Of a stretch of DNA of 64,000 nucleotides, positions 3,311 through 58,274 are shown piece after piece. The notes below the pieces were generated by a model that worked only from the letters and a program-made list of their open reading frames with translations, did not search any database and was not told the origin of the DNA. The DNA comes from Okamejei kenojei (lineage: Eukaryota): positions 3,596,001-3,660,000 of the forward strand of contig CM069165.1 of the NCBI GenBank assembly GCA_035221665.1, given 5' to 3'. Each line of letters opens with the position of its first letter. Position 1 is the stretch's first letter. Both the position numbers and the translations under genes were made by a program.

Positions 3311-4022
3311 ACAAAACAAAGATATATTTGACAAGCATAAACAGGGATCTTGAGGTCCAAGCTCATAACACCCTGAAAATGGCAGCGCAAGTAGATAGCG
3401 CAGTAAAGAATATATACGGTATGCTTGATATTATTGGTCGGGGCATTGAGTGTAAGAGTCAGGATATCACGATGCAGCTTTATAAAACTTTGAGCAGGCT
3501 GCATTTCGATTACTGCACTCATAGAGTCATAGAGTGATGCAGTGTGGTAACAGGTCATTCGGCCCAACTTACCCACACCGGACAACATGTCCCAGCTACT
3601 TTAGTCCCAACTGCCAGTATTTGGTCCATGTCCCACCAACCCTGTCCTATCCATGTACCTGTCAAACTGATTCTTAAATATTGCCATATTCCTTTTCTGA
3701 ACTACCTCCTCTGTCAGCTCGTTCCATAAATCCATCTTGTGTGAAAAAGTAACCCCTCAAACCTATATCCTCTAGTTCTCGATCCACCTACTGTGGGAAC
3801 GAGACTGTGCTCCTTCCCGATCTATTCCTATCATGATCTTATACACCATATTAGATCACCACTCATCCTACTGGTCTCCAGCGAATAGAGCACCAGCATA
3901 TTCAACCTCTGCCTATAGCTCAGAACATCTAGTTCTGGCAAAATCATCGTATATAGTCTCTGTACTCTTAGCAGCTTGACAACATCCTTCCTATAACACG
4001 GCGCACAGAACTGAACAACATA

Positions 4023-5628
4023 CAGTGGCTTGCAAAAGTGTTCCTACCCCTTGAACGTTTCCACATTTTGTCACGTTACAACCACAAACGTAAATGTATT
4101 TTATTGGGATTTTATTTGATAGACCAACACAAATTGGCGCATAATTGTGAAGTGGAAGGAAAATGATACATGGTTTGCAATTTTTTTTACGAATAAAAAA
4201 CTGAAATGTGTGGCATGCAAAAGTATTCAGCCCCCTTTACTCTGATACCCCTAAATAAAATCCAGTGCAACCAATTGCCTTCAGAAGTCACCTAATTGGT
4301 AAATAGAGTCCACTTATGTGTAATCTAATCTCAGTATAAATACAGCTGTTCTGTGAATGCCCCAGAGGTTTGTTAGAGAACATTAGTGAACAAACAGCAT
4401 CATGAAGCCCAAGGAACACACCAGACAGGTCAGGGATAAAGTTGTGGAGAGGTTTAAAGCAGGGTTAGGTAATAAAAAAATACCCCAAGCTTTGAACATT
4501 TCATGGAGCACTGTTCAATCCATCATCCGAAAAGGAAAGAGTATGGCACAACTGCAAACCTACCAAGACATGGCCGTCCAACTAAACTGACAGGCCGGGC
4601 AAGGAGAGCATTGATCAGAGAAGCAGCCAAGAGGCCCATTGTAACTCTGCAGAGATCCACAGCTCAGATGGGAGAATCTGGCCACAGGACAACTATTAGT
4701 CGTGCACTCCACAAATTGGGCCTTTATGGAAGAGTGGTGAGAAGAAAGCCATTGTTGAAACAAAGCGATAAGATGTCCCATTTGCAGTTTGCCACAAGCC
4801 ATGTGGTGGGGACAGTAAACATGTGGAGGAAGGTGCTCTGGTCTGATGAGACCAAAATTAACGTTTTTGTCCTAAATGCAAAACGCTATGTGTGGCGGAA
4901 AACTAACACTGCACATCACCCTGAACACACCATCCCCACTGTGAAACATGGTGGTGGCAGCATCATGCTGTGGGGATGCTTTACTTCAGTAGGGACAGGG
5001 AAGCTGGTCACAGTTGATGGTAAGGTGGATGGAGCCAAATACAGGGCAATCTTGGAAGAAAACATGTAAGAGTCTGCAAAAGACTTGAGACTGGGGCAGG
5101 GGTTCACATTCCAGCAGGACAATGACCCTAAACATAGAGCCAGAGCTACAATTGAATGGTTTAGATCAAAGCATATTCATGTGTTAGAATGGCCCAGTCA
5201 AAGTCCAGACCTAAATCAAATTGAGAATCTCTGGCAAGACTTGAAAATTGCTGTTTACAGACGCTCTCCATCCAATCTGACTGAGGTTGACCTATTTTGC
5301 AAAGAAGAATGGGCAAAAATTTCACTCTCTAGATGTGCGAAGCTGGTGGAGACATACCCCAAAATACTTGCAGCTGTAATTGCAGCGAAAGGTGGTTCTG
5401 CAAAGTATTGTCTCAAAGGGGCTGAATACTTTTGCACGCCACACTTTTCAGTTTTTAAATTGTAATAATATTTGCAAACCATGTATCATTCCCTTCCACT
5501 TCACAATTATGCACCACATTGTGTTGGTCTATCACATGAAATCCCAATAAAATACATTTACGTTTGTGGTTGTAACGTGACAACATGTGGAAAGGTTCAA
5601 GGGGTATGAATACTTTTGCACGCCACTG
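4023..5628 (+). mobile_element. Full-length Tc1-family DNA transposon (DD34E, IR/DR type), defective transposase
   Basis: TA|CAGTGG ... CCACTG|TA; about 210-bp inverted repeats with internal direct repeats; transposase pieces 4402-5410 with GRPTK, WSDETK, QQDND-34aa-E (SPDLNQIENLW); frameshift near 4530 and stop at 5067-5069. Confidence 0.96.
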
Positions 5629-5629
5629 T

Positions 5630-8600
5630 ACTTGTAACTTGACATCACCAACGTATTATACCACTGCAACATGGCCTCCCAACCTCCATACCCAATACTC
5701 TAACTGAAGAAGGCCAATGTGCCAAAAGCCTTTTTGACCACCCAATCTACCTGCGACTCCATCTTCAGGAAACTATGCACATAGACTCCTATATTAATCT
5801 ACGCTACAACACTACCTAGAAGCCTACCATTCAATAGACAATAGACAATAGACAATAGGTGCATGAGTAGGTCATTAGGCCCTTCGAGCCAGCACCGCCT
5901 TTCACTGTGTAGGTCATCCCTATGTTGGACTTCCAAAAATGCAACAGCTCTCATTTATCTGCGTTCATTTCCATCAAACAATCCTCAGCCCACTTAGCCA
6001 ATTGACCAAGTTACTACTGATTTTTTTCACAACCATCTGCACTATAGGCGAAGCCGCCCACTTTTGCATCATCTCCAAATTTGCTAATCTTGCTCTGAAA
6101 GCTATCGTCTAAATCATTCATATTGATCACAAACAGTAACGGGCCCAGCACCGAACCTTGAGGTATACCACTTGTCAGAAGCCTCCAGTCTGATAAGCTA
6201 CCTTCCACCATCACCCTCTGCTTCCTTCCTTGAAGCCAATTTTCTATCCATTCTTCTACCTCTCCTTGGACCCCATGCGATCTAATCGCCCAGGACAGCA
6301 TACCATGAGGAACCTTCACGAATGCTTCAGTGAAGTCCATATATACAACATCTACAGCTCTGCTCTGATCGACATTTTATGTCACATCTACAAGAACCTC
6401 ATAGTTGTGAGCCATTACCTCCCAAGTACAAAACGATGCTGGCAATCCCTAATCAGCCCGTGTCCATCTAAATGTTTGTATAGCCTATCCTTCAGAATAC
6501 TCTCTAGTAATTTTCCAACGGCATGTTAAGCTCACTGACCAAGTTCCAAGCATTTTACTTGCAGACTTGTCCCACTTGAATAAACGCAAATTTGCCACCC
6601 TGTTGATGTCCTCTACCGTTGACCTCCCTGACATTTGAACATATAAGTCTTCTGGCACCAGTCATGTATTTAAAGTCGACTCGTAAATGTCAACCACTGC
6701 TCCCGCAATTTCCTCTCCGGTTTCCCACCATGTCCTCGGATATATATATATGAGCATGCTCTATAAATGTGTCTACCTTCATATAAGATATTGCCTTCAG
6801 CACCTCTTCCACCGTAACACTTGCGTGCAGTTCTGGTCACCCCCTTTACAATATGGATGTGGAGGCTTTGGAAAGTTTGCAGAGGAGGTTTACCAGAATG
6901 TTGCCTGGATTACATGGTTTCAGCTACAGGACGATGTTGGTTTGCGAGCAAATAAAATTCATCAGAATGCTGCCTGGATTTGAGTGCTTAACCTACAGGG
7001 AGAGGTTGGATAGGGTGCAGAGGAACGCTGCCTCAATTAGGATGTTTGAGCTTCACGGAGATATTGAAGAACACTGCTGTAATAGGGATGAATTGCAAAT
7101 GCTGGTTCATACCAAAGACACACATTGCTGGAGTAACGCAATGGATCAGGCAGCATCGCAGGAGAAAAAAAGATAGGTGACTTTTCACGGCATGACTATT
7201 CTTCAAAAATGGATTGTTTTCACTGGAACATCGGAGGTTGATGGGAGATCTGATAGAAGTGTATGAAATCAGGAGGGGCGTACATAGGGAAAACAATCAG
7301 CAAATGTTTCCCTCTGGGGAGAGGGAAAGGGGAACAATAGAGCGAGGAGAGACTGAGAGGTCTAGAAGGGAGGTCAACGATAGAGGAAATAGAACGTTAA
7401 TGGCAAGATCCATAACAGCATCAATGTACAGAAGGATCTTGGGATTCAGGCCCACAGCTCCCTTAAAGTGGCAACGCAAGGATATTGAGCATTATCAAGA
7501 TGTATGTGGTCATGGACCGCGAAGCAGACTGACATACGGATTATAGACGGGCAGAAAATGGCAGATGGAGATTAATCTGACCACTTTAATACAGATAAAT
7601 ATGAGATGTTGCATTTGGGTGCAAAATGGACAGAACTTACAGTTAATTGTAGGGTTCTGGTGAGCGTTGTGGAGATCTAGGAGTACAGTACATAGTTTGG
7701 TGAATTTGTCATAATAGATATATTTGGTGATCATACATGCTTTTGGCACATTGTCCATCATTAGTCAGAGCACTGAACATAGAATTTGGCAGGACATGTT
7801 GCAGTTGTGTAAGCGCAGGAGGATGAGGGGTGATCTGGTAGAGGTGTACAACATTATGAGAGGAATAGATCGGACAGACGCACAAATTCTATTGCCAGAG
7901 TAGGGTGATAAAGAACCAGGGGCACAGGTTTAAGGTGAGACTGGGAAGGAATTAGTAGGAAGCTGAGGGTAACTTTTCCACACAAAAGATTGTAGGTGTA
8001 TGGAAGAAGCTGCCGGACGAGGGAGATGAGGAAGGGACTATCGCAACGTTTAAGAATCATTTGGACAGGTTTAGAGGGAGGTTTGACTAGTGTAGATGAA
8101 ACATGTTAGCCGTCGTGGGGAAGTAGCGTGAAGGGCCTGTTTTCGCGCTGCAGTACTCAATGACCATAATTCTAAGAGTGTGAGGTGTAGCACTTTGCGA
8201 GGTCGAATGTAAGGGGAAAGTCTACAGTTAATGGCAAGACCCCTAACAGCATTGATGTAAAGAGGAATCTTGAAGACGAAGTCCACACCTCCCTGAAAGC
8301 ACTAACATAAGTTTAGTTTAGTTTATAGTCACGTATCATGAAGAGCAGTGAAAATGTTTTATTGCGTGCTAACCAATCAGTGGAAAGAATATACAGATTG
8401 CAATCGAGCCTTCCACATTGTACAGATATTTGATAAATGGAATAACGTTTAGTGCAGTAGATTCAGCGGTAAAGACGGTGTCCCGTATATTTGCTTTATC
8501 AGGCGGTGCATTGAGTACAAGCGTCAGGAAGTCACAATGCAGCTTGATCAAATTTTGATTAGGCCGCATTTAGAATATTACGTGCAGTTCAGGTCACTCC

Positions 8601-8660: not shown

Positions 8661-10668
8661 GAGAAACTCAGCGGGTGCAGCAGCATCTAAGGAGCGAATG
8701 AGATAGGCGACGTTTCGGGTCAAGACCCTTCTTCAGACTGGTCAGGGATCAGGGAAACGAGAGATGTAGACGGTGATGTGGAGAGATAAAGAACAATGAA
8801 TGAAAGATATGCAAACAAGTATCGATGATAAAGGGAACAAGCCATTGTAAGCTGTGTGTGGTGTGAAAATGAGAAGCTAGTGCGACTAGGGTGGGCGAGG
8901 GAGATAGAGATAGAGGGAATGCCAGCGCCCGAGGTCTGAGGGAGAGGTGGGAAGGGGAGGAGACAGCAAGGGTTAACAGAATTGAGAAAATTCAATGTTC
9001 AAGCCCAAAGGATGCAGACTCCCCAAGCGGAATATGAGGTGCTGTTCCTCCAACGTGCGGTGTTGCTCACTCTGGCCGTGGAGGAGGCTCAGGACCGAGA
9101 GGTCGGATACAGAATGGGGGGGGGGGAGTTGAAGTGCTGAGCCACCGGGAGGTCGGGTTGGTTTTTGCGGACCGAGCGGAGATGTTCGGCGAAACGATCG
9201 CCAAGCCTCTGCTTGGTCTCACCGATATAGATCATCTGGCATCTGGAGCAGCGGATGCTGTAGATGAGGTTGGAGGAGGTGCAAGTGGACCTCTGTCGGA
9301 CCTGGAAAGACTGCTTGGGTCCCTGAAAGGAGTGGAGGGGGGAGGTAAAGGGACAAGTGTTGCATTTCTTGCGGTTGGAAGGGAAAGTGCCCGGGGAAGG
9401 GGTAGAGCGGGAGGGGAGGGAAGAATTGACAATGGAGTTGCGGAGGGAGCGGTCTTTGCGTAAGGCAGACAGGGGGGGAGATGGGAATATGTGGCGGGTA
9501 GCGGGGTCACGTTGGAGGTGGCGAAAGTGGCGGAGGACTATGTGTTGTATTTGCCGGCTGGAGGGGTGAAAGGTGAGGACCAGGGGGACTCTGTCCTGTT
9601 TGCGAGTGCGGGAATGGGGAGAGAGGGCAATGTTGCGGGGTATGGAGGAGACCCTGGTGCGAGCCTCGTCAATAGTGGGGGATGGAAATCCCCGTTCTCT
9701 GAAGAATGAGGCCATTTGTGATGACCTGGTGAGGAACACCTCATCCTGGGAGCAGATGCGGCGTAGGAGGAATTGGGAATAGGGGATGGAGTCCTTACAG
9801 GAAGCAGTGTGGGAGGAAGAGTAGTCCAGGTAGCTGTGGGAGTCAGTTGGTTTGTAGTGGATGTCGGTCAGGAGTGCATCACCTGCAATAGAGATGGTGA
9901 GGTCAAGGAATGGTAGGGAAATGGTCCATGTGTATTTGAGTGCCGGATGGAAGTTGGTAGTGAAATGAATGAAGTCAGTCAGTTGTGTGTGGGAGTAGGA
10001 GGTGACACCAAAGCAGTCGTCGATGTAACGGAGGTAGAGGTCGGGGATGGGGCCCTGGTACGCCGAGAACAAGGATTGTTCGACGTACCCAACAAAGAGG
10101 CAAGCATAGCTGGGGCCCATGCGTGTGCCCATAGCTACGACTCGTGTTTGGAGGAAATGGGAGGAATCAAAAGATAAGTTATTGAGGGTAAGGACCAACT
10201 CCGCTAGGCAGAGGAGGGTGTCCCCCCTCCCATTCCGTATCCGACCTCTCGGTCCTGGGCCTCCTCCACGGCCAGAGTGAGCAACACCGCAAGTTGGAGG
10301 AACAGCACCTCATATTCCGCTTGGGGAGTCTGCTTCCGTTGGGCTTGAACATCGAATGTTCTCAATTCTGTTAACCGTTGCTGTCTCCTCCCCTTCCCAC
10401 CTCTCCCTCAGACCTCGGGCGCTGGCATTCCCTCTATCTCTATCTCCCTCCCCCACCCTAGTCGCACTAGCTTCTCATTTTCACACCACAAACAGCTTAC
10501 AATTGCTTGTTCCCTTTATCATCGATACATTTTTGCATATATTGCATTCATTGTTCTTTATCTCTCCAAATCATCGTCTATATCTCTCGCTTCCCTGACC
10601 CGCTGATTTTCTCCAGCTTTTTGCGTAACCCTCGATTCTCCAGCATCTGCAGTTCCTTCTTTAACAAA
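8661..10668 (-). mobile_element. 5'-truncated Penelope-like retroelement (RT + GIY-YIG endonuclease) with inverted terminal repeat
   Basis: ORF 9089-10198(-) with AMGT.MGPSYACLF, YIDD, NLIYSIRC..C..IYIGET...LGDRFAEH; 8749-9126 is repeated inverted at 10221-10598; flanking duplication TTATTAGAATGCTG (8647-8660 / 10669-10682) inside a CR1 fragment. Confidence 0.93.
8709..8736 (-). ncRNA. Minimal hammerhead ribozyme core in the Penelope terminal repeat
   Basis: Minus strand CTGAAGA-A-GGGTC-TT-GACCC-GAAAC-GTC: CUGANGA and GAAA boxes, perfect helix II, palindromic ACGT helix III, GUC triplet. Confidence 0.7.
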
Positions 10669-11353: not shown

Positions 11354-11765
11354 GTTTAAAGATGTTTTGTTTGCCCAGAGTGCAGTTGGGGCTTTGAACG
11401 CAATGCCAGGAGCGGTAGTGGGGGCAGATACATTAGTGGTGTTTAAGAGGCTTTTAGATAGGCACATGGAAGTGCAGGGAATGGGGGACTATTGATCACG
11501 TGAGGACAACAGTTTAAATTTGTGATCGACATGGTCATTTTGGGGGTGAAGACGTGTTCCTGTGCTGTACTGTTCCGTGTTATATTTCCTAAGTTATGCT
11601 GGGTGATAAATGTGTCGCTTTGAACCATTGTTGTTGAATATTCTTGCGCCCTCAATCAAATTTATTGATGCAATATATCTTTATTTTTAATACTCTAGTA
11701 TGAATCAGGGTATCTACAGGACAAAGAAAGCTGGAAGGAGTGAGAACGATAGAGATAGGAAGAGA

Positions 11766-11822
11766 AAGTGGGGATAATGGTTCCATTAGATTCTCCCACT
11801 AATGGAACCTTTATCCCCACTT
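11766..11822. repeat. Near-perfect inverted repeat (24-bp arms, 1 mismatch, 9-nt loop)
   Basis: AAGTGGGGATAATGGTTCCATTAG-attctccca-CTAATGGAACCTTTATCCCCACTT. Confidence 0.9.
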
Positions 11823-12260: not shown

Positions 12261-12611
12261 ATCCGAAATTGAAGCTGCGATCTCCCCAAGTTACAATTCT
12301 CCAGCCGTCTGACCGTGAAATTAAAAACAAGGGCAAAGCCACTGTTGTTTGTCTCATCACTGATTTTTACCCGGACAACATAAAAATTCAATGGATTGTC
12401 GATGACGTTGGACAACCCAAAGATAGTCCTAACATCCATACAGATCCTAGCTCCCATAGCGAAGACGGAGGGGAGACCTTCAGTATCAGTAGTCGCTTTA
12501 GATTGGACGCCCGAGATTACGCAAAGGCCAAGAAGGTCGTCTGTCAAGTAGATCACTACAGGAATGGATCTACGCCACAAACTGAACAGCAAACCCACAT
12601 CATCAAACACG
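12261..12611 (+). CDS. TRBC: T-cell receptor beta constant region exon 1 (C1-set Ig domain)
   Basis: Long CT tract, then ...ctctttcAG|AT; 351 nt, phase 1/1; donor G|GTGAAA. Translation xPKLKLRSPQVTILQPSDREIKNKGKATVVCLITDFYPDNIKIQWIVD...FSISSRFRL...VVCQVDHY has the C-beta signature PS.xEI...KATxVCL..xFYPD, the conserved Trp and both Cys. Confidence 0.96.
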
Positions 12612-12895
12612 GTGAAATTTCTAACCGTAATGTCTTGTAAAGTTGTAGCATGACCCCCAACGTCTACACTTGATGCTCTCACTGATGATGGTCAGTGTGC
12701 CAAAAGCCTACTTAACCACCCTATCTACTTGTGATGCCACTTTTGAAGATCAGCTTCCCAATAACAGGGTGACCAACACGTTACAAAATATTCCATATGT
12801 GTCCTCACCAATATCGTGTGCAACTGTAATATGACCTCCCAAATTATATGTTTAATTCTAATTTGTTCTTGGTCTTCATCAGTCAGGGTATTGGG

Positions 12896-13010
12896 TATAT
12901 TTATGTTCTTTTAACAGAAGCTGAAATTCAAACAATGGAAGCTGACTTATCTGATCCTCATTTGTAAAACTATCGTCTGCGAAATAATTGTTTCTGCTTT
13001 AGCTTGCAAA
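12896..13010 (+). pseudogene. Duplicated, frameshifted copy of the TRBC transmembrane exon plus its acceptor, inside intron 1
   Basis: By hand about 74/93 nt identical to 16386-16486 with an 8-nt deletion; upstream intron end tatttatgttcttttaacAG matches tatttatattcctttaacAG. Confidence 0.9.
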
Positions 13011-14269
13011 AGTGACACAACAATCCCTCTGTCTCCAGTGGAATAACAACCATGGTTTTAGTATCTGGAAGGTATGCCAAAACCCATAAGGGCATGTGAT
13101 AGGAGCAGAACGAGGCCATTATGCCCATCAAGTCTACTCCGCGATTCAATCACGGCTAATCAAAATCTTCCTCCTAAAATCATTCTCCTAACTTCTCCCC
13201 ATACCCCTTGACACCCGTACCAATCGGAAATCTATGTCTGCCTTCAAAATATTCATTGAAAGTCTTCACAGCCGTTTTATAATTCCACACATTCACCACC
13301 CTGTGAAAAAATACTGTCCTCCTCCCCTCCTTCTTAACTGAACGTCCATTAATTCAAAGAGGCTGTAACCTTTGGTCTTAGACTCTCCCACTAGTGGAAA
13401 CATCCTCTCCGCAGCCACTCGTTGCAAGCCATTCGCTATTCTGTATTTTTAAATGACCCCCCCGCATTATTCTAAACTCCAGCGCCATCAAACGCTCAGC
13501 CTATGTATGATTCCTGGGATCATTCTTGTAAATCTCCTCTTGGCCCTCTCCAGAGCCAGCACATCCTTCGTTGAATATGGTGCCATAAACCGGCACAATA
13601 CTCCAAATGCAGCCTGACCTATGTATTTTCACCGCTCAGTGTATAGATGTTGACATAATATAACTTTATTTATCCCAGGAGGCTTGTAAATGATTTCAAG
13701 AAATCGTATCCCAGGTCCCTAGTGTCAGAATATCTACCCCACTACTTGGGATGCCTGTAGCACACTGCCAGGACAGGTGGTGGAGACAGATATGACAGTA
13801 GCGTTTATGTGGCTTTTAGGTAGACCCATGGAAGTGCAGGGAATCGAGGAATATGGATCACGTACAGGCAGATAAGGTTAACAAGGAAATGCAAAAACCG
13901 GTAAACACATGAAAGCACACAAACGTGGTTTAGGAGAATGATCCTGGGGATGATTGTTAACGTTCGATGAGCGTTTAATGGCGCCAGAGCCTGTTCTCGC
14001 TGTTTAGAAAGATGAAGGGAGACCTAGATGAGGCTCAGGTAGAGTAGATGTGGAGAGAATGGTTCCATTCGTGGGAGAGTCTTGGACCAGATGCCATAGC
14101 CTCAAAAAAAAAGGATAAGCCTTTGGAAAGGAGATGAAGAGGAATGTCTTTAATCAGAGGGTGGTGAATCTCTGGAATTAATTACCACCGAAGGCTGTGG
14201 GGTCATCAATTGATATTTTAAGGCCATCGACCATAATCACCCGTACTTTAGTTTGTTTTTATTTAGATT

Positions 14270-14540
14270 AGTTTAGTGATACAACTTGGAAATAGGCCCT
14301 CCTGTTCAATGAGTCCAAGCCAACCAACAATCCCCATCCTGCATACTGGGGATACTGACAATTTTACCCAAGTCTATTATTCTACAAACCCGCAATTCGT
14401 TGGACTGTGGGAGGAAACCGGAGCACCGGAGGAAACCCACGAAGTCACAGGGTGAACGTGCAAACTCCGTACAGACAGCACCCATACTCAGGATCAATTG
14501 CGCTCTAAGGCAGCAACACCAACGCTGCACAACTGTTTTG
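14270..14540 (-). mobile_element. tRNA-derived SINE; related copies at about 1945-2020(+), 23325-23470(+), 35700-35990(-), 36240-36500(+)
   Basis: tRNA-like head with A/B-box remnants (e.g. GGCACAGTGGTACAGCGG...GGTTCGATCC at 1951-2009) and shared body GAGTTTGCACGTT...CTCCGGTTTCCTCCCAC. Confidence 0.8.
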
Positions 14541-14705
14541 CCCTCACCCGAGAATATTGTGAAGTGTATATGGAGTCAATGGTGGGAAGCCTGGAATGTG
14601 CGAAGGACTGGGCTTCATCCAAAACTCTGCAATGTTTTGTAGCTTCGTTTCGTAAATGGGTATTTATGAAACCACTTAACGCATTTTCCATATTTCTTCT
14701 TACAG

Positions 14706-14726
14706 AGACTTGTGGCTTGAGTAAAG
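14706..14726 (+). CDS. TRBC: TRBC exon 2 (connecting peptide/hinge, E-TCGLSK, interchain Cys)
   Basis: ttttccatatttcttcttacAG|agacttgtggcttgagtaaag|GTGAGT; 21 nt, phase 1/1, in frame with exons 1 and 3; xCG motif matches the TCR-beta hinge. Confidence 0.9.
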
Positions 14727-16385
14727 GTGAGTGGCTCTACTTAAATAAGTATACCGTCATTATTTTAAGACTGTTTACCCTTTCTGTGAGTTAAAACTTA
14801 ATAATCTCACACAGCAATATATAGAGTGCATAAATACACTTCAGCCAAACCTGCCCACGCCAACCAACATGCCACATCTACACTATTACCATCTGTCAGT
14901 TGTTGGCCCACATCCCTCTAATGCTTTCCTATCCAGCCAACTGTCCAAACGTTTATTAAACGTTGTGATAGTGCTTGCCAGAACTACCCCTCCCCGCCCC
15001 CCCCACCCCCCCACCCCCCCCCCCCACGGCAGCATGTTACATACAGCCACTGTGCAGAAAACATTGTCCCTCAGGTTCCAATCAAAACTTTCTCCCGCTT
15101 ATCCCCCTCACCGTACACATATGGCGTCTGGTTCTCGATGCTCCATACTCTGGGCAAAAGACTATGCATCTTCTTGATCTATTCATCGCGTGATTTTGGA
15201 AAGCTCTTTAAGATAACCCTCATCCTCCTACATTACAAGGATTAAAGTCCGAGCCTGACTCAACCTTTCCCTGTAGCTCAGGCCCTTGAGTCATGGCAAC
15301 ATTTATGTAAATATTCTTGGCATCCTTTCCCGCTTAACAACATCTTTCCATAAATAGTGTGACCAAAACTGAACAAAATACCAAAAATGTGGCCTTACCG
15401 ATGTCTAGTACAGCTGCTATATTACCTATGTCCTCTGGGTCTTGATTCCCCTGTCGTGGGGGTAAAATACTGTACATTTACCCGATCTATTTCCCTCATG
15501 ATTTTATACAATATCAGATCACATCATCCTCCTGCGCTCCTAAGAATACATGTTTAGCCTGCCCAAACTATACATATAGCTCAGACACCCGAGTCCTGGC
15601 AACATTCTCGTAAATCTTCTCTGCACAATTTCCCGCACATCAGCATATTTCCTATAACATGGTGAATATAGTCCAAATGTGGCCTCACCAAAGTCTTCCT
15701 GTAACATGCTTTCCATATGTCTATACTGAAACTCTGAATAATGAAGGTAATGTGCCTCAGAAGACGGCTATGGGAATGCATCTGCCGACTCCAGCCAGGC
15801 AGGAGATACAGAGCCTCGGCCGCAGGGGGGCAAATCTGACCAGTCAATCCGCCGCGGAAGTCCCGATGAGGTCGAGATTAGCACCCACACTTGGCCTCAG
15901 CGTCGCATTTTCGAGGCGGATTTCCGGGAGGGATTTCAAGTATGCTCTCGTAGCATGTTTGAGCTAAAGGATGAGCCAAAGCTCCAGTTGCTGGAAAAAC
16001 AGTGGCGGTAATGTATATGTGCGTGCCCGCTTTCAGGGAATTATGTACTTGGACCACACGATCCCTCTGTACATCGATGCCGTTAAGGGTATTGGCAATA
16101 ACTATAGAATTCCCCCTTGCATACGACCTCCCAAAGTGCAACATCTCGCACATGCTCAGATTACAGTCCAACCGCCAATTTTCTACCCATTTATGTAGCT
16201 GATCTCTTTTCCACTAAATACGTTGACATCATTCTTCACAGTCCGCAACCCCAGCGTTTGTTCATTCATAAATATCCGTTATGTTAAAGTGCCTATACTA
16301 CTTCAGCAAGTAAGAAGTTATTTTTTAATAAACGTTATTCTTCACTCTAGATGTTATTTACCACATATTTATATTCCTTTAACAG

Positions 16386-16492
16386 AAGCTAAAGTTCAGA
16401 CATTGCAAACTGCGAAACTGATTTACCTGATCCTGATTTGCAAGAGTATTCTTTATGGAATAATTGTTTCTGTATTAGCTTGCAAAGCCAAG
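16386..16492 (+). CDS. TRBC: TRBC exon 3 (transmembrane, EAKVQTLQTAKLIYLILICKSILYGIIVSVLACKAK)
   Basis: cctttaacAG| ... AAG|GTAAGT; 107 nt, phase 1/0; hydrophobic helix with an intramembrane Lys and the Y..L..K..LY antigen-receptor TM motif. Confidence 0.95.
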
Positions 16493-22487: not shown

Positions 22488-22514
22488 ACATCTTACAACA
22501 AGAGGTTTGATTGA
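22488..22514 (+). CDS. TRBC: TRBC exon 4 coding part (cytoplasmic tail TSYNKRFD-stop)
   Basis: Strong pyrimidine tract tatctttcttatttcAG| in a non-repeat island; phase 0 matches exon 3; short tail then TGA, as expected for TCR-beta. Confidence 0.8.
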   Translation, partial: TSYNKRFD

Positions 22515-46634: not shown

Positions 46635-49600
46635 GATGGAAGAGGGGAGAAGATGGAGTGACCGGGTGAGACTGATCTATGTTTATTCTGGTGGCTTTGA
46701 GCGGTTGAATGAGGTGTAGATCATATAGATGGTGTCCATGGAAGGGAGATTAGTTTGCGTAATGGTCTCGGCTGCTTTCACAATTTTTTGCAGTTTCTTG
46801 CGGTTCTTGGACGGAGCTGTTCCCAAACTATGCTGTAATGCATCCCGATAAATTGTTTTCTATGGCGTATCTGCAGAGGTTGAACAGAGATGTTGGGGAC
46901 ATACCGAACCTCCAAATCTTTCTAAGGCAGTAAAGGCGTCTGTGTGCTTTCTCGGCCATTGCTTAGATTTTGCTGGTTCAAGAATATATGCTGGTGATAT
47001 TTACTCCTCGGAACATTGATCTTATCAAATGTATTTCTACCCAACTTTAGGAGTGGAATGAGAGAGTAGCCAGGATATCTGATGATGCTGGCAGGGTGTT
47101 TGTGGCAGTGACTCCTATAGATCCCTTTAATGGTGGGGAAATCAGTACGTGATGGATTGGGCAGTGTCTACCAATCTCTGTTATTTAATTTGTTCCTGAG
47201 CCTTGTAGATGCCCAACCAGGCCGATATGCAACCTGTTAACATGCTTTCTATTTATGTGATCTACTGGGAGAAGCTTTGAAAATTAGAAGAGTTGCAAAC
47301 ATTGAGGAATGATGCAAGAAGATACTGCGGGTTGGAGGTCAGCTGCAGAAATGGGCGGACAAACGGCAGATGGAGTTTAACGTAAGCAAGTGTGTGAGCT
47401 GTTGCACTTTTTGAGTTTGAATGTAAGGTGAAAGTCTGGAGTTATTAGCAAGACCTTCAACAGCATTGATGTGTAGTGATGACATGGAGTCCAAGTTCAT
47501 CGCTCACTGAAGGTGGCATCACAAGTAGGTAGAGCGGTAAAACCAATCAAGAGAATATTCGTTGATATGTAGATCGAGTCGATGGAAAGAGGGATTGTTT
47601 TCCGCGATGGTCAGAGCTGCGTCTAAAATTCCATCGCTCCTGGTAGCGCGTTCCGGGCCCCGCCACGTTCTGTGCATAAAAAACCTGTAAAATGTGCCCC
47701 TCTCACGTTAAAACTACGCTCTATAATCTTTGACATTGATATGGTGGTGGAGGGGGTGGGTGTAGTTTCTGACTGTTTATCCTATATACCTCTCTCGGAA
47801 ATTTATATTACTTCTATCAGGTCTCCAATGAACCTGTGAGGTTCCGGAGAAGTGATCCAAGTCTGTGTAACTGCTCTTTGTAGTTATGCACTCTATTCTT
47901 TTACATGGGCATTTATCTGTACAAATAGTTTAGGAAGAAGGTGAATCTAACCGTCAGTTTACCCACTCTCTCTTATTCGCCGCCTCTTCCTTTTTACAAG
48001 GTATGGTAAGTGTTGGGGGTGAGAGGGAGAGAGCATGAGATAGTGTAATACTCCCACCCAGTGGCTGAGAACCGCCACTGCGATTCCTACACCCCATCCC
48101 AGTCTCTGTGACATCCTCCCCCCCGGTGCCTATACCACTCTCCTGATGTCTGTAACACCCTCGCCTTGGGCCCCTACACTCCGCCATGTCTCTGACCACC
48201 ACCCAGGCGGCACTTACACCCCTCTCCTTATTTCTGTGACTCCCTCCCTCTCCAGCCCCGACACCCCCTCTTCCAGTCACTGTATCTCCCTCCCCTCCGG
48301 CCTCGACACCCTTCACCCAATGGAAGAGGGGAGAAGATGGGCTGACCGGGGTGAGGCTGGTCTTTGTTCATTGTGGTGACCTTGAGCGGAGGCATGAGGT
48401 GTAGATGGTGTAGATGGTGTCCATGGAATGGAGATTAGTTTGCGTGATGGTCTCGGCTGCTTCCACAATTCTCTGAGGTTCCTTGCGGTTCTTGGACGGA
48501 GCTGCTCCCAAACCAGGTTGTAATGCATCCCGATAAATTGTTTTCTATGGCATATCTGTAGAGGTTGAACAGAGGTGTTGGGGACATGCCGAACCTCCAA
48601 AGCTTTCTAATGCAATAAAGGCGTTGGTGTGCTTTCTATGCCATTGCTTAGATGTGACTGGTCCAAGATTTGATGCTGATGATATTTACTCCCCGGAACT
48701 TTGATCGTATCAAGTTTATTTATACCCAACGTTAGGAGTGAACCGAGGGAGTAGCCAGGGTGGTATGTGTATCTGATTATGCTGGCAGTCTTTTTGAGAC
48801 AGTGTCTCCTATAGATTCCCTTGATGGTGGGGAAGTCAGTACCCGTGATGGATTGGGCAGTGTCTACCCATCTCTGTAATTGCCTTTGTTCCTGGACATT
48901 CAAGATGCCGAGCCAGGCTGTGATGCAACCAGTTCACATGCTCTCCACTGTATGTGAGCTACAGGGAGAAGTTTTGAAAATTGGAAGAGTAAAACATTGA
49001 GGAAGGCTCTCAGAAGATACAAAGGGATGGAGGTCAGCTGCAGAAATGGGTGGAATTTAGCACGAGCAAGTGTGTGATCCGTTGCATTGTGTGAGTTTGA
49101 ATGAAAGGTGAAAGTCGACAGTAATTAGCAAGACCATCACAGCATTGATGTGTAGTGGTAACTTGGAGTCCAAGTTCATAGCTCACTGAAGGTGGCAGCA
49201 CAAGTACGTTGAGCGGTAATGAAATTCAAGCGAGTATACGTTGATGTGTAGATGGAGTCGATGGAAGGGAGGTCGGTTTCCGTGATGGTCAGAGCTGCGT
49301 GCATAATTCCACCGCTTCTGTCAGCGCGTTCCAGGCCCACATCACTAACTGTGTCTAAAAAACTTGCCACGCATATTTCCTATAGATTTTGACTCTTTCA
49401 CCTTAAAGTTATGCTCTCTAATCTTTGACATTAGTATGGTGGTGGTGTTGGAGGGGGGGGGGGAGTTTTCTGACTGTTTATCCTATCTACCGCTCTCGGA
49501 AATGTATATTGTTTCTGTCGGGTCTCCAATCAACCTGTGAGGTTCCGGAGAAATAATCCAAGTCTGTGCAACCTCTCCTACTAGTTAATACATTTTAATC

Positions 49601-50030
49601 CTTTCCCTGGGCATTCATCTGTCCAAATAGTTTGGGAAGAGGGGGAATAGAGCCGACAGTTTACACACACTCTCTTGTTCGCCCGCTGCATCTGTTACAA
49701 GGTTTGGGTAGGGTTGGGTGTGAGAGGGAGAGAGCATTAGATAGTGAAATACTCCCACCCAGTGGCGGAGAACAACCACTTCGAAACCTACACCCCTCCC
49801 ATTCTCTGTGATTTGCTCCCCTCGGCGCCTCTACCTCTCTCCCGATGTCTGTAACACCCACACCTCTGGCCCCTACACCCCGCCCTGTCGCTGTGACCAC
49901 CTCACAGCCGGCACCTACACCGCTCTCCCTGTTTCTGTGATGCCATCCCTCTCCAGACCCGGCACACCCTCTCCCCGTCAATGTATCCCCCTCCGTTCCG
50001 GCACCTACACCACCTCTCGCCGTATCTATG
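46635..50030. repeat. Older tandem duplication, period about 1.7 kb
   Basis: 46635-48310 aligns collinearly with 48318-50030, clearly diverged; each unit ends in a C-rich minisatellite of about 38 bp. Confidence 0.85.
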
Positions 50031-53000
50031 AACCCCTTCAAGTTTCAAATAGAATATCAGAACACCGGGAGTGGGTTACCGGCTGGGATCTAATCCTACA
50101 AGTGTATGGGAGGGTTTATATATAGAATAACAGATCCCCGGAGGTGTGTTACAGGATGGGATCTTATCAACGTGTTTTGGGCGGGGGGGGGGGGGGTGGT
50201 GTAAAGTTCAACTTTACAGATTTACTAGATTTCGATGAGTCAGAGCAACAAACAACTATGTATGTTGTCCACCAATAAAAAAGTGGACACTTGGAGATGA
50301 TTGTATTCAATAGGTAATACTTTTTAGTGTGTAGTGTTGTGTAGAATTGTACATGAAAGTTCCCAAGAAATCTCGGCAAAGTTGGAATAGCTTTGAGGGC
50401 TTAATTTTTAGTTTATATTATATCCATTCATTCCAGATTAGCGCTCAGAAAATAATATCGAGGGGTGGAAGGGAGAAAGTTTGGTAGAGAGCGGCATGCT
50501 GGATAGAGGGAGTGGGGTTGAAAAATGACATGAGGAATATCAGGGACAGGATGGGGTGGAGGGAGATCAAGAAAGGCAGGTAAGAGAATAAGGGGAGGGG
50601 AGGGATGGGGGAGTGAGGGGGGGGAGGTAAGGGACATATAGGGGAGTGGGACATGATGAGGGGAGTTACAAGGGAGGGGATAGAGAGAAGGGGAGAGAGA
50701 CGGCTTGGGGAGAGAGTGACGAGAGATCCAGGGGGGTGAGTTAGAGGGGAGGTGAGGGGAGATAATGGGGTGAGGGGGGCGAGGGAAGAGGATGGGGAGT
50801 TGGAGGAAAGGGGATGGGACGAGGGGGTGGGAGGGGAGAGTGAAGAGGAGGTAAGAGAGGCTGGGTGCGAATGAGAAGGGAAGAGAGGGGATGGCGAGAG
50901 GGGAGGGGGAGAGGAAAATGGGTAAGGAAAGGGGAAGCGATGGAGAAGATGAAGAGATGGGAATTGGGTGAGGAGATGTAATGAGAGGGGGAGTGGAGAT
51001 CAATCACTGGATGCATTGAAGAGAGATGTATATGGAGCTCTTAGGGCAAGAGGAATCAAGGGATATGGGGTAAAAGGCAGGAACGGGGTACTGATTGGTG
51101 AAGATCAGACATTATCACAATGAATGGCGGTGCTGGCTCCAAGGGCTGCATAGCCCACTCCTGCCCATATTGTGTTGTATCTCTGTAAGACGGGAGGGTA
51201 GGTGGAGGGGAGGATAAGGTAGGGCGGGGACAGTTAATGGGTATGAGGAGTTGAGGAAGAAAGGAGCAGTAGAGTGGAAGGGGTGTGGGAGAGTGGAGTA
51301 GGGAGGGGGGAGGGTGTTCGGTTGTGCATTCCGCATCCGCCATATCACCTCCCCATCAAGCCCTCCCCCTTGCCTTCTCCTGAGGCTCTTCGCCCCGTAG
51401 CTCCTCCCCTGTAGCCCATGCTCCTACCTTCTAGCCCATCCGCCTCCCTCCCACATTACCCCACCCCTTCCACGGAGCCCCTCCCCTGACCCATCCATCT
51501 ACTGCCACCCATTCACCCAGATCCCACAATTTCCGTTCCAAATCGCCATCATATCCATGATTTCTCATCGGCCTGAAAATCTGTCGATTTTACAGTCAGG
51601 TAGAGCAATTACAGTTTCCCACATGAAGCACATGCGCGCTGGAAATTGGTTGGTTGATCGAGCGCTGTGGCGATCTTTTATGCTGGCGCCTTCAATACTT
51701 GTCAGCGGAAAGGGCCGCCATCATTCGTGTAGGCTCTCTCAATGCAAGTGGCCGTACACAGACCATTGTCGTATGTGATGCTAGCCTCAATGCAGGTCTC
51801 CACATTTCGTGCAGGCTTCCTTAACACTCGTGCCCATACAGGGACAGGGTGTGATGCAGACAGCATCAATGCAGGTATCCCATACGGTAAATGTGCCGCC
51901 ATCGTTGGTGCTGCCACCACACCGGTACCCTTCAAAGATGACCCTCTGGTGCAGAGATATAGAAGGCACTTCTCGCCTGTCTATAATCCAGTGAACGCGC
52001 AGCGGATGTAATAACTCCTCACCTTACCCCTCCATCCCTGGCAAGATGCTGGGGAATTTCTTCTGCACTCGTGTGATGCAAGGGTTAATCACAATATGTC
52101 AGCTAAAATGAAGTTGTCAGTGCATACAGGAGCGTTGAATTCGCGTGTATGAAATAACTGCTGATGCCGGTTTAAATCGAAGGAAGACACAAAATGCTGG
52201 AGTAACTGCGGGACAGGCAGCATCTCCCAATTCCTTCTCTCCAGAGATGCTGCCTGTCCTGCTGAGTTTCTCCAGCACTTTGTGTCTATCTTAAACTTGA
52301 GTACGCAGCGGGCAGTGAGACCTGTCATTTTGTATCGTTAATGTATTGACAGTTGTTTTCTGTATTTTGCTTTAATAAATAGTTATTTGTGTATTTCAGG
52401 ATGTGCTTACTCCGTTCATTGATCCGAATCCTTGAATCCTGCATATAGTTCTTCATAGCCAGCTCCAATGGCACCAAATCATTGGTACTTCTTTCATAAC
52501 TCTTTGCCAGAGGTACTGCCACATAGTTTTATCGTCAACTCTGCCTCATCAGGTTGAACAGCGGATACAGTAGTACATGAGTTCTATTTCCCCCTTCAAC
52601 TACGTCAAAGGATCTTGACAGTCTTTTCAGGAGAGGCAGAGGTTCACTTGCATCTCCTCCAAGCTAACCTACTGTATCTGCTGTTCCAGTTGTGGACTCC
52701 TATATGTCTGCGAGACCAAGTGCTGGCTCGGCGATGGTTTCGCTGAACACCTTCACTCACTGCACTTGGATTTACCCAATCTCCCGGTTGCCTATCATTT
52801 TAATTCCCCATATCCATCAAGAGAATATTCGTTGATATGTAGATCGAGTCGATGGAAAGAGGGATTGTTTTCCGTGATGGTCAGAGCTGCGTCTAAAATT
52901 CCATCGCTCCTGGTAGCGCGTTCCGGGCCCCGCCACGTTCTGTGTATAAAAAACCTGTAAAATGTGCCCCTCTCACGTTAAAACTACGCTCTATAATCTT

Positions 53001-56000
53001 TGACATTGATATGGTGGTGGAGGAGGTGGGGGGTAGTTTCTGACTGTTTATCCTATATACCTCTCTCGGAAATTTATATTACTTCTATCAGGTCTCCAAT
53101 GAACCTGTGAGGTGCCGGAGAAGTGATCCAAGTCTGTGCAACTGCTCTTTGTAGTTATGCATTCTATTCTTTTACATGGGCATTTATCTGTACAAATAGT
53201 TTAGGAAGAAGGTGAATCTAACCGACAGTTTACCCACTCTCTCTTATTCGCCGCCTCTTCCTGTTACAAGGTATGGTAAGTGTTGGGGGTGAGAGGGAGA
53301 GAGCATGAGATAGTGTAATACTCCCACCCAGTGGCTGAGAACCGCCACTGCGAGTCCTACACCCCATCCCAGTCTCTGTGACCTCCTCCCCTCCGGTGCC
53401 TATACCACTCTCCTGATGTCTGTAACACCCTCGCCTTGGGCCCCTACACTCCGCCATGTCTCTGACCACCACCCAGGCGGCACTTATACCCCTCTCCTTA
53501 TTTCTGTGACTCACTCCCTCTCCAGCCCCGACACACCCTCTTCCAGTCACTGTATCTCCCTCCCCTCCGGCCTCGACACCCTTCACCCCATGGAAGAGGG
53601 GAGAAGATGGGCTGACCAGGGTGAGGCTGGTCTTTGTTTACTGTGGTGACCTTGAGCGGAGGCATGAGGTGTAGATGGTGTCCATGGAATGGAGATTAGT
53701 TTGCGTGATGGTCTCGGCTGCTTCCACAATTCTCTGAGGTTCCTTGCGGTTCTTGGACGGAGCTGCTCCCAAACCAGGTTGTAATGCATCCCGATAAATT
53801 GTTTTCTATGGCATATCTGTAGAGGTTGAACAGAGGTGTTGGGGACATGCCGAACCTCCAAAGCTTTCTAATGCAATAAAGGCGTTGGTGTGCTTTCTAT
53901 GCCATTGCTTATATGTGACTTAGATGTGATGCTGATGATATTTACTGCCCGGAACTTTGATCGTATCAAGTTTATTTATACCCAACGTTAGGAGTGAAAC
54001 GAGGGAGTAGCCAGGGTGGTATGTGTATCTGATTATGCTGGCAGTCTTTTTGAGGCAGTGTCTCCTATAGATTCCCTTGATGGTGGGGAAGTCAGTACCC
54101 GTGATGGATTGGGCAGTGTCTACCCATCTCTGTAATTGCCTTTGTTCCTGGACATTCAAGATGCCGAGCCAGGCTGTGATGCAACCAGTTCACATGCTCT
54201 CCACTGTATGTGAGCTACAGGGAGAAGTTTTGAAAATTGGAAGAGTAACAAAACATTGAGGAAGGCTCTCAGAAGATACAAAGGGATGGAGGTCAGCTGC
54301 AGAAATGGGTGGAATTTAGCACGAGCAAGTGTGTGATCCGTTGCATTGTGTGAGTTTGAATGAAAGGTGAAAGTCGACAGTAATTAGCAAGACCTTCACA
54401 GCATTGATGTGTAGTGGTAACTTGGAGTCCAAGTTCATAGCTCACTGAAGGTGGCAGCACAAGTACGTTGAGCGGTAATGAAATTCAAGCGAGTATACGT
54501 TGATGTGTAGATGGAGTCGATGGAAGGGAGGTCGGTTTCCGTGATGGTCAGAGCTGCGTGCATAATTCCACCGCTTCTGTCAGCGCGTTCCAGGCCCACA
54601 TCAGTAACTGTGTCTAAAAAACTTGCCACGCATATTTCCTATAGATTTTGACTCTTTCACCTTAAAGTTATGCTCTCTAATCTTTGACATTAGTATGGTG
54701 GTGGTGTTGGCGGGGGGGGGGGGGGGTAGTTTCTGACTGTTTATCCTATCTACCGCTCTCGGCAATGTATATTGCTTCTGTCGGGTCTCCAATCAACCTG
54801 TGAGGTTCCGGAGAAATAATCCAAGTCTGTGCAAACTCTCCTAGTAGTTAATACATTTTAATCCTTTCCCTGGGCATTCATCTGTCCAAATAGTTTGGGA
54901 AGAGGGGGAATAGAGCCGACAGTTTACACACACTCTCTTGTTCGCCCGCTGCATCTGTTACAAGGTTTTGGTAGGGTTGGGTGTGAGAGGGAGAGAGCAT
55001 TAGATAGTGAAATACTCCCACCCAGTGGCGGAGAACAACCACTTCGAAACCTACACCCCTCCCATTCTCTGTGACTTGCTCCCCTCGGCGCCTCTACCTC
55101 TCTCCCGATGTCTGTAACACCCACACCTCTGGCCCCTACACCCCGCCCTGTCGCTGTGACCACCTCACAGCCGGCACCTACACCGCTCTCCCTGTTTCTG
55201 TGACGCCATCCCTCTCCAGACCCGGCACACCCTCTCCCCGTCAATGTATCCCCCTCCGTTCCGGCACCTACACCACCTCTCGCCGTATCTATGAACCCCT
55301 TCAAGTTTCAAATAGAATATCAGAACACCGGGAGTGGGTTACCGGCTGGGATCTAACCTACAAGTGTATGGGAGGGTTTATATATAGAATAACAGATCCC
55401 CGGAGGTGTGTTACAGGATGGGATCTTATCAACGTGTTTTGGGCGGGGGGGGGGGGGGGGTGGTGTAAAGTTCAACTTTACAGATTTACTAGATTTCGAT
55501 GAGTCAGAGCAACAAACAACTATGTATGTTGTCCACCAATAAAAAAGTGGACACTTGGAGATGATTGTATTCAATAGGTAATACTTTTTAGTGTGTAGTG
55601 TTGTGTAGAATTGTACATGAAAGTTCCCAAGAAATCTCGGCAATGTTGGAATAGCTTTGAGGGCTTAATTTTTAGTTTATATTATATCCATTCATTCCAG
55701 ATTAGCGCTCAGAAAATAATATCGAGGGGTGGAAGGGAGAAAGTTTGGTAGAGAGCGGCATGCTGGATAGAGGAAGTGGGGTTGAAAAATGACATGAGGA
55801 GTATCAGGGACAGGATGGGGTGGAGGGAGATCAAGAAAGGCAGGTAAGATAATAAGGGGAGGGGAGGGATGGGGGAGTGAGGGGGGGTAAGGGACATATA
55901 GGGGAGTGGGACATGATGAGGGGAGTTACAAGGGAGGGGATAGAGAGAAGGGGAGAGAGAGACGGCTTGGGGAGAGAGTGACGAGAGATCCAGAGGGGTG

Positions 56001-58076
56001 AGTTAGAGGGGAGGTGAGGGGAGATAATGGGGTGAGGGGGGCGAGGGAAGAGGATGGGGAGTTGGAGGAAAGGGGATGGGACGAGGGGGGTGGGAGGGGA
56101 GAGTGAAGAGGAGGTAAGAGAGGCTGGGTGCGAATGAGAAGGGAAGAGAGGGGATGGCGAGAGGGGAGGGGGAGAGGAAAATGGGTAAGGAAAGGGGAAG
56201 CGATGGAGAAGATGAAGAGATGGGAATTGGGTGAGGAGATGTAATGAGTTAAGGGGAGTGGAGAACAATCACTAGATGCATTGAAGAGAGATGTATATGG
56301 AGCTCTTAGGGCAAGAGGAATCAAGGGATACGGGGTAAAAGGCAGGAACGGGGTACTGATTGGTGAAGATCAGACACTATCACAATGAATGGCGGTGCTG
56401 GCTCCAAGGGCTGCATAGCCCACTCCTGCCCATATTGTATTGTATCTCTGTAAGACGGGAGGGTAGGTGGAGGGGAGGATAAGGTAGGGCGGGGACAGTT
56501 AATGGGTAGGAGGAGTTGAGGAAGAAAGGAGCAGTAGAGTGGAAGGGGTGTGGGAGAGTGGAGGAGGGAGGGGGGAGGGTGTTCGGTTGTGCATTCCGCA
56601 TCCGCCATATCACCTCCCCATCAAGCCCTCCCCCTTGCCTTCTCCTGAGGCTCTTCGCCCCGTAGCTCCTCCCCTGTAGCCCATGCTCCTACCTTCTAGA
56701 CCCTCCGCCTCCCTCCCACATTACCCCACCACTTCCACGGAGCCCCTCCCCTGACCCATCAATCTACTGCCACCCATTCACCCAGATACCACAATTTCCG
56801 TTCCAAATCGCCATCATATCCATGATTTCTCATCGGCCTGAAAATCTGACGATTTTACAGTCAGGTAGAGCAATTACAGTTTCCCACTTGAAGCACATGC
56901 GCGCTGGAAATTGGTTGGTTGATCGAGCGCTGTGGCGATCTTTTATGCTGGCGCCTTCAATACTTGTCAGCGGAAAGGGCCGCCATCATTCGTGTAGGCT
57001 CTCTCAATGCAAGTGGCCGTACACAGACCATTGTCGTATGTGATGCTAGCCTCAATGCAGGTCTCCACATTTCATGCAGGCATCCTTAACACTCGTGTCC
57101 ATACAGGGACAGGGTGTGATGCAGACAGCATCAATGCAGGTATCCAATACGGTAAATGTGCCGCCATCGTTGGTGCTGCCACCACACCGGTACCCTTCAA
57201 AGATGACCCTCTGGTGCAGAGATATAGAAGGCACTTCTCGCCTGTCTATAATCCAGTGAACGGGCAGCGGATGTAATAACTCCTCACCTTACCCCTCCAT
57301 CCCTGGCAAGATGCTGGGGAATTTCTTCTGCACTCGTGTGATGCAAGGGTTAATCAGAATATGTCAGCTAAAATGCAGTTGTCAGTGCATACAGGAGCGT
57401 TGAATTCGCGTGTATGAAATAACTGCTGATGCCGGTTTAAATCGAAGGAAGACACAAAATGCTGGAGTAACTGCGGGACAGGCAGCATCTCCCAATTCCT
57501 TCTCTCCAGAGATGCTGCCTGTCCTGCTGAGTTTCTCCAGCACTTTGTGTCTATCTTAAACTTGAGTACGCAGCGGGCAGTGAGACCTGTCATTTTGTAT
57601 CGTTAATGTATTGACAGTTGTTTTCTGTATTTTGCTTTAATAAATAGTTATTTGTGTATTTCAGGATGTGCTTACTCCCTTCATTGATCCGAATCCTTGA
57701 ATCCTGCATATAGTTCTTCATAGCCAGCTCCAATGGCACCAAATCATTGGTACTTCTTTCATAACCCTTTACTAGAGGTACTGCCACATAGTTTTATCGT
57801 CAACTCTGCCTCATCAGGTTGAACAGCGGATACAGTTGTACATGAGTTATATTTCCCCCTTCAACTACGTCAAAGGATCTTGACAGTCTTTTCAGGAGAG
57901 GCAGAGGTTCACTTGCATCTCCACCAAGCTAACCTACTGTATCTGCTGTTCCAGTTGTGGACTCCTATATGTCTGCGAGACCAAGTGCTGGCTCGGCGAT
58001 TGTTTCGCTGAACACCTTCACTCACTGCACCTGGATTTACCCAATCTCCCGGTTGCCTATCATTTTAATTCCCCAT
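47546..58076. repeat. Recent tandem duplication, period about 5270 bp (47546-52815 and 52816-58076)
   Basis: Both copies start ATCAAGAGAATATTCGTTGATATGTAG and end TTTTAATTCCCCAT; ORF pairs in the track are nearly identical. Confidence 0.95.
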
Positions 58077-58274
58077 TCCCATTCCCACACTGACCATTCT
58101 ATCCAGGGCCTCCTCCATTGTCAAACTGGCAAGAAGTCCATGGCAAATTCGCTTGAGGAGGTTACACCCGAGTGATATATTAACGTGTTTAAGGAAGAAC
58201 TGCAGATGCTGGAAAATCGAAGGTACACAAAAATACTGGAGAAGCTCAGCAGGTGCAGCAGCATCTATGGATCA

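Follow-up and report, generated by a model that had tools for sequence, protein, structure and literature searches.

The window, a 64,000-nt stretch of Okamejei kenojei contig CM069165.1, contains a T-cell receptor (TCR) beta constant gene (TRBC), here called gene A, whose features are listed in Table 1. Gene A passes as a TRBC, as it combines a C1-set immunoglobulin exon (Pfam PF07654, E 1.8e-16), a hinge exon with a Cys, a transmembrane (TM) exon with a Lys, a short cytoplasmic exon and J segments upstream; four J-like segments precede exon 1 on its strand, at a distance of 12-21 kb. The nearest named proteins, from protein searches that returned four relatives in all (none of them in the first search, at E 1e-25), are the TCR-beta-like proteins of three elasmobranchs: little skate, whale shark and cloudy catshark. 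Exon 1 shares about 74-75% amino-acid identity with the Leucoraja erinacea protein XP_055517541.1, and the join from the TM exon to exon 4 is present in runs X1 and X4.

Table 1 Features of TRBC gene A and its surroundings, in window coordinates
Feature	Position	Strand	Remarks
Decayed DNA copy, in inverted orientation, of sequence from the end of intron 3 through exon 4 and beyond	11368..11770	-	About 70% identity; lies in the J-C intron
TRBC gene A exon 1 (C-beta Ig domain)	12261..12611	+	Closes in phase 1
Repeat-derived flank, presumably LINE-like	12629..12895		Common to the TM-like copies in intron 1 of genes A and B and the two in intron 2 of gene B, four in all
Acceptor tract of the TM-exon copy	12896..12917	+	19/22 nt the same as in the tract of the working TM exon
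TM-exon copy (pseudo-exon)	12918..13010	+	8-nt deletion; shifted frame ends at TAA 12965-12967
Tail common to the gene A and gene B copies	13011..13071	+	70% over 50 nt
Hinge exon with interchain Cys	14706..14726	+	Joined within a transcript contig from a relative
Working TM exon (exon 3)	16386..16492	+	
Coding part of exon 4, from the cytoplasmic tail up to the stop	22488..22514	+	

The J-C intron of gene A holds an inverted exon-4 relic 0.5 kb before exon 1, which is also present in a second contig, C576, and was not found before exon 1 of the second TRBC gene described below. A processed origin of this relic was rejected: the genomic alignment scored 245 against 228 for the spliced form, and the junction test was non-significant (p 0.14-0.18). 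Two inverted repeat pairs lie in the same intron, at 8742-9125 and 10222-10606 (385 nt at 94%) and at 4021-4237 and 5415-5630 (217 nt at 90%), and both are likely to be the ends of DNA transposons. Downstream of gene A, the window carries a tandem 5.3-kb duplication of 97.9% identity (47546-52817 and 52816-58082).

A second TRBC, gene B, is encoded on the opposite strand of contig C35, which carries both genes, about 300 kb upstream of gene A, with its exon 1 at C35:3310295-3309948. The first exons of the two genes share 77% amino-acid identity. Exon 1 of gene B matches the little skate protein at 86% identity, exon 1 of gene A at about 75%, so the split between the two genes appears to be older than the split from Leucoraja. 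Two TCR-beta-like constant proteins, encoded on separate scaffolds, are likewise found in the cloudy catshark. The region C35:3317055-3595651 presents two head-to-head J-C clusters with four J-like segments each. At least three V segments were detected between genes A and B using two V queries (the interval includes a 500-N gap at C35:3338348), and all of them are on the gene B strand; gene A would therefore need inversional joining, if no other V segments exist.

Gene B spans C35:3310295-3268700 on the minus strand and consists of one C exon followed by two modules, each made of a hinge, a TM exon and an exon 4. The second module is complete, 77-87% identical to the first and retains an intact hinge, but it is dead, as its TM exon is frameshifted by a 2-nt deletion and its exon 4 contains a premature stop. 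Intron 2 of gene B holds two further TM-like copies, both cut short and frameshifted. Besides the two working sets, the 405 kb examined contain five TM-like pieces, one hinge piece and two exon-4 pieces, and local duplication of 3' exons is thus a habit of this TRBC locus. A genome search with the TM exon gave seven matches and one with exon 1 gave three close matches (two C exons on C35, one on C576); these own-genome counts are lower bounds, since a DNA search with the 3' half of the intron-1 copy described below missed its gene B counterpart.

Over C576:60001-90000, contig C576 aligns collinearly with the window at 94-97% identity; its exon 1 has 95% protein identity to that of the window and its TM exon differs at three residues. 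From this alignment, C576 is probably the other haplotype. Its divergence is high for alleles and may reflect either a divergent haplotype or a recent third gene.

Intron 1 of gene A contains a decayed second version of the TM exon. This copy begins at 12918 behind an AG (12916-12917), 306 nt past the end of exon 1 at 12611, and is recovered by self-BLAST of the window as 12897-13010 against 16365-16486 (E 3.5e-19). With the best gap placement, it is 79.6% identical to the working TM exon and differs from it by 19 substitutions, 10 of them at third codon positions; the other gap placement gives 20 substitutions, with nine at third positions. An 8-nt deletion, located somewhere between 12937 and 12945 with its exact spot ambiguous over eight positions, shifts the frame, and exon 1 spliced to the copy would continue for 15 codons past the split codon before the stop. 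A sequence-only reading of this DNA had already described a copy of about 80% identity with its acceptor, some 300 bp past exon 1 and ahead of the hinge, together with the 10 third-position changes among 19, the 8-nt deletion, the phase match to exon 1 and the TAA, and each of these observations was reproduced here. It had also considered the copy to be a product of DNA duplication and not a retrocopy. We agree, because intron bases are kept (19 of the 22 acceptor bases are common to both) and the hinge exon, which a retrocopy would have brought to this position, is absent. The shared intron sequence on which that reading relied is real, but it is limited to about 22 nt; the next 58 nt align poorly, and a dispersed repeat lies upstream of the tract. 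At the other end, homology stops 6 nt short of the donor of the TM exon, so that the copy is left without a donor of its own at the usual place.

Many of the replacements were previously listed as conservative. Missing from that list are Y>C, G>E and K>E. Moreover, two of the changes between the copy and the working exon (L/M and I/T) lie on the branch of the working exon, as the C576 TM exon shows the state of the copy at these sites. The TM Lys is kept, as had been noted, in the old frame of the intron-1 copies of both genes. Four residues after this Lys, Cys replaces Tyr in all three intron-1 copies, while Tyr is found in 4/4 outgroup proteins and in 3/4 genomic TM exons. In the human beta chain, Y291 contacts TCR-alpha and CD3 gamma/epsilon, according to the portion of PMC8293630 available to us, and spacing suggests that the skate Tyr is its equivalent. 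Beyond the copy, the tail in the old frame has 11 codons, a stop at 13044-13046 and then a GT at 13072. A derivation of this tail from a fused exon 4, as in a partial retrocopy, was rejected, as its likeness to exon 4 was non-significant in 12/12 comparisons (best anchored p 0.08).

Intron 1 of gene B holds the same copy, with 77% identity over 348 nt that include both flanks. Its presence in both genes with the same flanks places the origin of the copy before the gene duplication. The gene B version has an intact AG, a matching phase, the TM Lys and a 45-codon open frame with a 19-residue hydrophobic run (mean 2.14, against 2.28-2.41 in working exons). A 6-nt in-frame deletion removes two TM residues, the Tyr is replaced, and a GT and an ATTAAA are found about 20 nt and about 180 nt past the stop, respectively. 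Intron 1 of both genes enters a repeat mosaic about 16 nt past the donor, and this mosaic also precedes the two truncated TM-like copies in intron 2 of gene B. In an exon tree, the intron-1 copies form one group against the working exons (support 99/96), and in a tree of the flanks they form one group against the intron-2 copies (support 99/96). The exon tree loses its resolution once the short intron-2 copies are added, which leaves room for conversion among paralogues; markers at codons 2-4 and 16-23 that were identified by eye as common to the intron-1 copies only argue against later conversion by the working exons.

As it stands, the gene A copy fails as a working alternative exon, since its 8-nt deletion leads to a stop after 15 codons. 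The window and C576 share the deletion with the DNA of organism B, a related species (runs X2 and X3, one sample), for which a 1241-nt contig spans 12240-13142 with one gap, and it is therefore no assembly error. Uneven depths in X2 had raised the possibility of copy-number amplification in organism B, which the even depths in X3 (66-84) do not bear out. The gene B copy of organism B shares, by hand alignment, the 6-nt deletion, has in addition lost a net 1 nt, which shifts the frame, and has a changed acceptor base (one base of the acceptor being visible). Four of the five copies with a readable start are out of frame, the five being those of gene A, gene B, the two in intron 2 and that of gene B in organism B. 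In run X1, a 540-nt contig joins exon 1, 20 letters, the TM exon and exon 4, the normal path, across the site of the copy; this run comes from a relative, organism A, and bears on skipping only if organism A has the copy. No contig of runs X1, X4 and X5 lies on 12926, and none of X1 and X4 lies on the gene B copy except through the normal TM exon; as contigs drop rare forms, neither result counts as evidence. The gene A copy is today most likely skipped and inert.

We then asked what the copies retain of a coding past by comparing those of genes A and B with each other, a comparison in which neither sequence is a working exon. They differ at 12-13 positions, of which 7 are silent and 5-6 are replacements, more silent than the share of about 0.255 expected from the mutation spectrum measured on the window and C576 (p 0.016-0.027). 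With the C576 allele, the counts are 6 silent and 4-5 replacement (p 0.022-0.038). The orthologous introns of the two genes have a pooled mismatch of 0.244 (1105/4526 columns). Replacements between the copies are rarer than this rate predicts (p 0.0006-0.002, or 0.007-0.018 at a rate of 0.20), and silent sites, with 7 of about 21 changed, are at or above it. The bodies of the two copies are 87% identical, the working exons 85-86%, and among 46 intron windows of 87 columns, none has as few as 11 mismatches and one has as few as 13. The acceptor AG is kept in both copies over the 24% intron divergence.

Other tests were less clear. The codon-position-only test between copies was non-significant (p 0.07-0.12), constraint relative to the immediate flanks gave p 0.057, and per-branch counts made by hand were each non-significant (3 silent and 3 replacement, p 0.19). 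Between the copy and the working exon, where branches are mixed, 9 silent and 11 replacement changes gave p 0.03-0.08 depending on the model. It should be noted that the selection signal comes from 12-13 differences in one 90-nt exon and from a test made after the fact. The sequence-only reading had proposed that the two sequences diverged under coding constraint and had accepted that a bias falling entirely on the functional branch would undo the argument. The bias persists when the intron-1 copies are compared together, and a replacement deficit is thus found on branches without the working exon, on small counts and with p 0.0006-0.04 according to the test. This deficit supports past coding use at the hinge-less position. 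Since the hinge-less arrangement is common to both genes, any constraint after their split acted on an exon in that position. The Tyr kept in 4/4 outgroup proteins was gone from the copy before the split, and its early loss fits relaxation as well as it fits a new role.

The account that we favour, and consider probable by a modest measure, is that the copy is a decayed DNA duplicate of the TCR-beta TM exon that was once translated as a hinge-less alternative exon, and that it is neither a soluble-TCR exon nor a poison exon. We infer that part of intron 2, carrying a duplicate of the TM exon, was copied into the start of intron 1, which would explain the order of TM before hinge. The route may have been a tandem duplication of the 3' module with loss of the first hinge, or a direct insertion; the data are compatible with both. 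This copying would have preceded the duplication that gave two TRBC genes. Exon 1 would have been spliced straight to the copy to yield a membrane-bound TCR-beta lacking both hinge and interchain Cys, composed of the C domain, a TM segment with the Lys but with Cys for Tyr, and a tail of 11-14 residues, and, after genes A and B had split, the copy was presumably translated for some of the time. The old path may have used the GT that lies 20-25 nt after the old stop in both genes to splice on to exon 4, which is a guess. A stop within the usual 50-nt rule escapes decay, and a splice from this GT to exon 4 would qualify. The copy would then have died separately in each gene, by its own deletion in each. 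Among the histories offered by the earlier reading, the remnant of a hinge-less membrane form is thus the likelier one, and that of a second C-beta is not supported, as C35 has two C exons, each with its own copy; a remnant of a third C-beta gene was likewise discarded, since C35 has two C exons and C576 has one.

The copy could instead have been neutral debris from the start, a 3' exon fragment left by repeated local duplications and never translated in intron 1, with the silent excess due to chance or gene conversion. We regard this as possible, if doubtful. The locus is full of such pieces, including a whole dead module in gene B and the relic just before exon 1 of gene A; moreover, the copy has no normal donor, no longer has the K, S and Y that sharks retain and, in gene A, has fixed a G>E inside the TM segment. 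Neutral debris is harder to reconcile with the shortage of replacements between copies whose silent sites changed at or above the intron rate, with an acceptor AG that outlasted such intron divergence in both genes and with a gene B deletion that is in frame.

If the hinge-less exon was once used, it might still be used in gene B, with only the gene A copy dead. The product in this species would be a hinge-less membrane TCR-beta, not disulfide-linked to alpha and with an altered alpha/CD3 contact. The AG, phase, open frame, Lys, hydrophobic run, GT and ATTAAA of the gene B copy are all compatible with such a use, and hinge-less constant genes exist in the form of salmon TRGC4 and TRGC6, as far as the accessible part of PMC7349638 goes. 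We nevertheless judge it improbable, given the two deleted TM residues, the replaced Tyr, the frameshift and altered acceptor seen by hand in the organism B orthologue, and the fact that the polarisable differences from organism B (codon 6 and two tail codons) change residues. Still more improbable is the earlier suggestion that the frameshifted gene A copy is spliced in today, yielding either a soluble TCR-beta whose tail is acidic or transcripts bound for nonsense-mediated decay. Its acceptor is nearly the same as the used one, its phase suits exon 1, a 154-nt pseudo-exon would be bounded by a plausible GT at 13072, and the 8-nt deletion is old enough to be common to organism B. However, 3/3 differences in the 15-codon shifted tail change the residue (I/F and P/S in C576, A/D in organism B), and the gene B copy, broken differently, does not have this frameshift. 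The GT at 13072 is GG in C576, is weaker in gene B and has a changed -1 position in organism B, so that no conserved pair of acceptor and donor surrounds the stop as in a poison exon. Secretory terminal exons are known from Ig heavy chains; here, the tail is not conserved and no AATAAA or ATTAAA was found in 12965-14705, between the stop of the copy and the hinge, which is a weak test, as there is none within 1 kb of exon 4 either. The X1 contig, from a relative, also joins across the site.

To our knowledge, TCR-beta constant regions have been taken to have one fixed exon path. The mouse has a C-beta-0 exon. In the open-licence literature, we found no description of a TM-exon duplicate ahead of a TRBC hinge, nor of a locus map with two inverted J-C clusters, duplicated 3' modules and exon relics; the accessible portions of PMC11754216 and PMC6795676 contain nothing on skate TRBC structure. 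If a TM exon ahead of the hinge did stay constrained, a single gene in one lineage of vertebrates would have tried both disulfide-linked and non-linked alpha-beta receptors, a switch that gamma chains make between genes. The copy gives an exact junction to seek in skate thymus and spleen RNA.

The closest parallels come from other TCR constant genes, as described in the parts of the cited sources that were available. Exon 2 of human TRGC2 is duplicated or triplicated, and ruminant, dog and mouse TRGC genes have exons EX2A, EX2B and EX2C (PMC7349638). The skate arrangement resembles these in being an intragenic tandem duplication with the membrane-proximal exon of a TCR constant gene and in changing the interchain Cys. 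In TRGC, however, the multiplied exon is the hinge exon, which keeps the normal order and is in use (PMC7349638), whereas here a copied TM exon stands ahead of the hinge in a TRBC gene and the locus duplicates whole hinge-TM-tail modules. Atlantic salmon TRGC4 and TRGC6, which have no exon 2, join the C exon directly to the TM exon, as the would-be product of the copy does, but they are separate gamma-chain genes that lost the hinge and not an alternative exon (PMC7349638). Axolotl TRBC_003, with two C-beta exons, is another case of exon duplication within an ectotherm TRBC gene; there, the Ig-domain exon is doubled, the gene is transcribed and, within the accessible text, no TM duplicate is described (PMC12529555). 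At the scale of the locus, salmonid TRB1 and TRB2 likewise place two oppositely oriented J-C clusters on a single chromosome, with a four-exon TRBC of phases 1,1,0, but that pair is 99% identical, compared with 77% for exon 1 of skate genes A and B, and the same portion of the source describes no extra 3' exons for it (PMC10464911). Intragenic exon duplication in TCR constant genes is therefore already known, and a TM duplicate ahead of the TRBC hinge would be a further variety of it.
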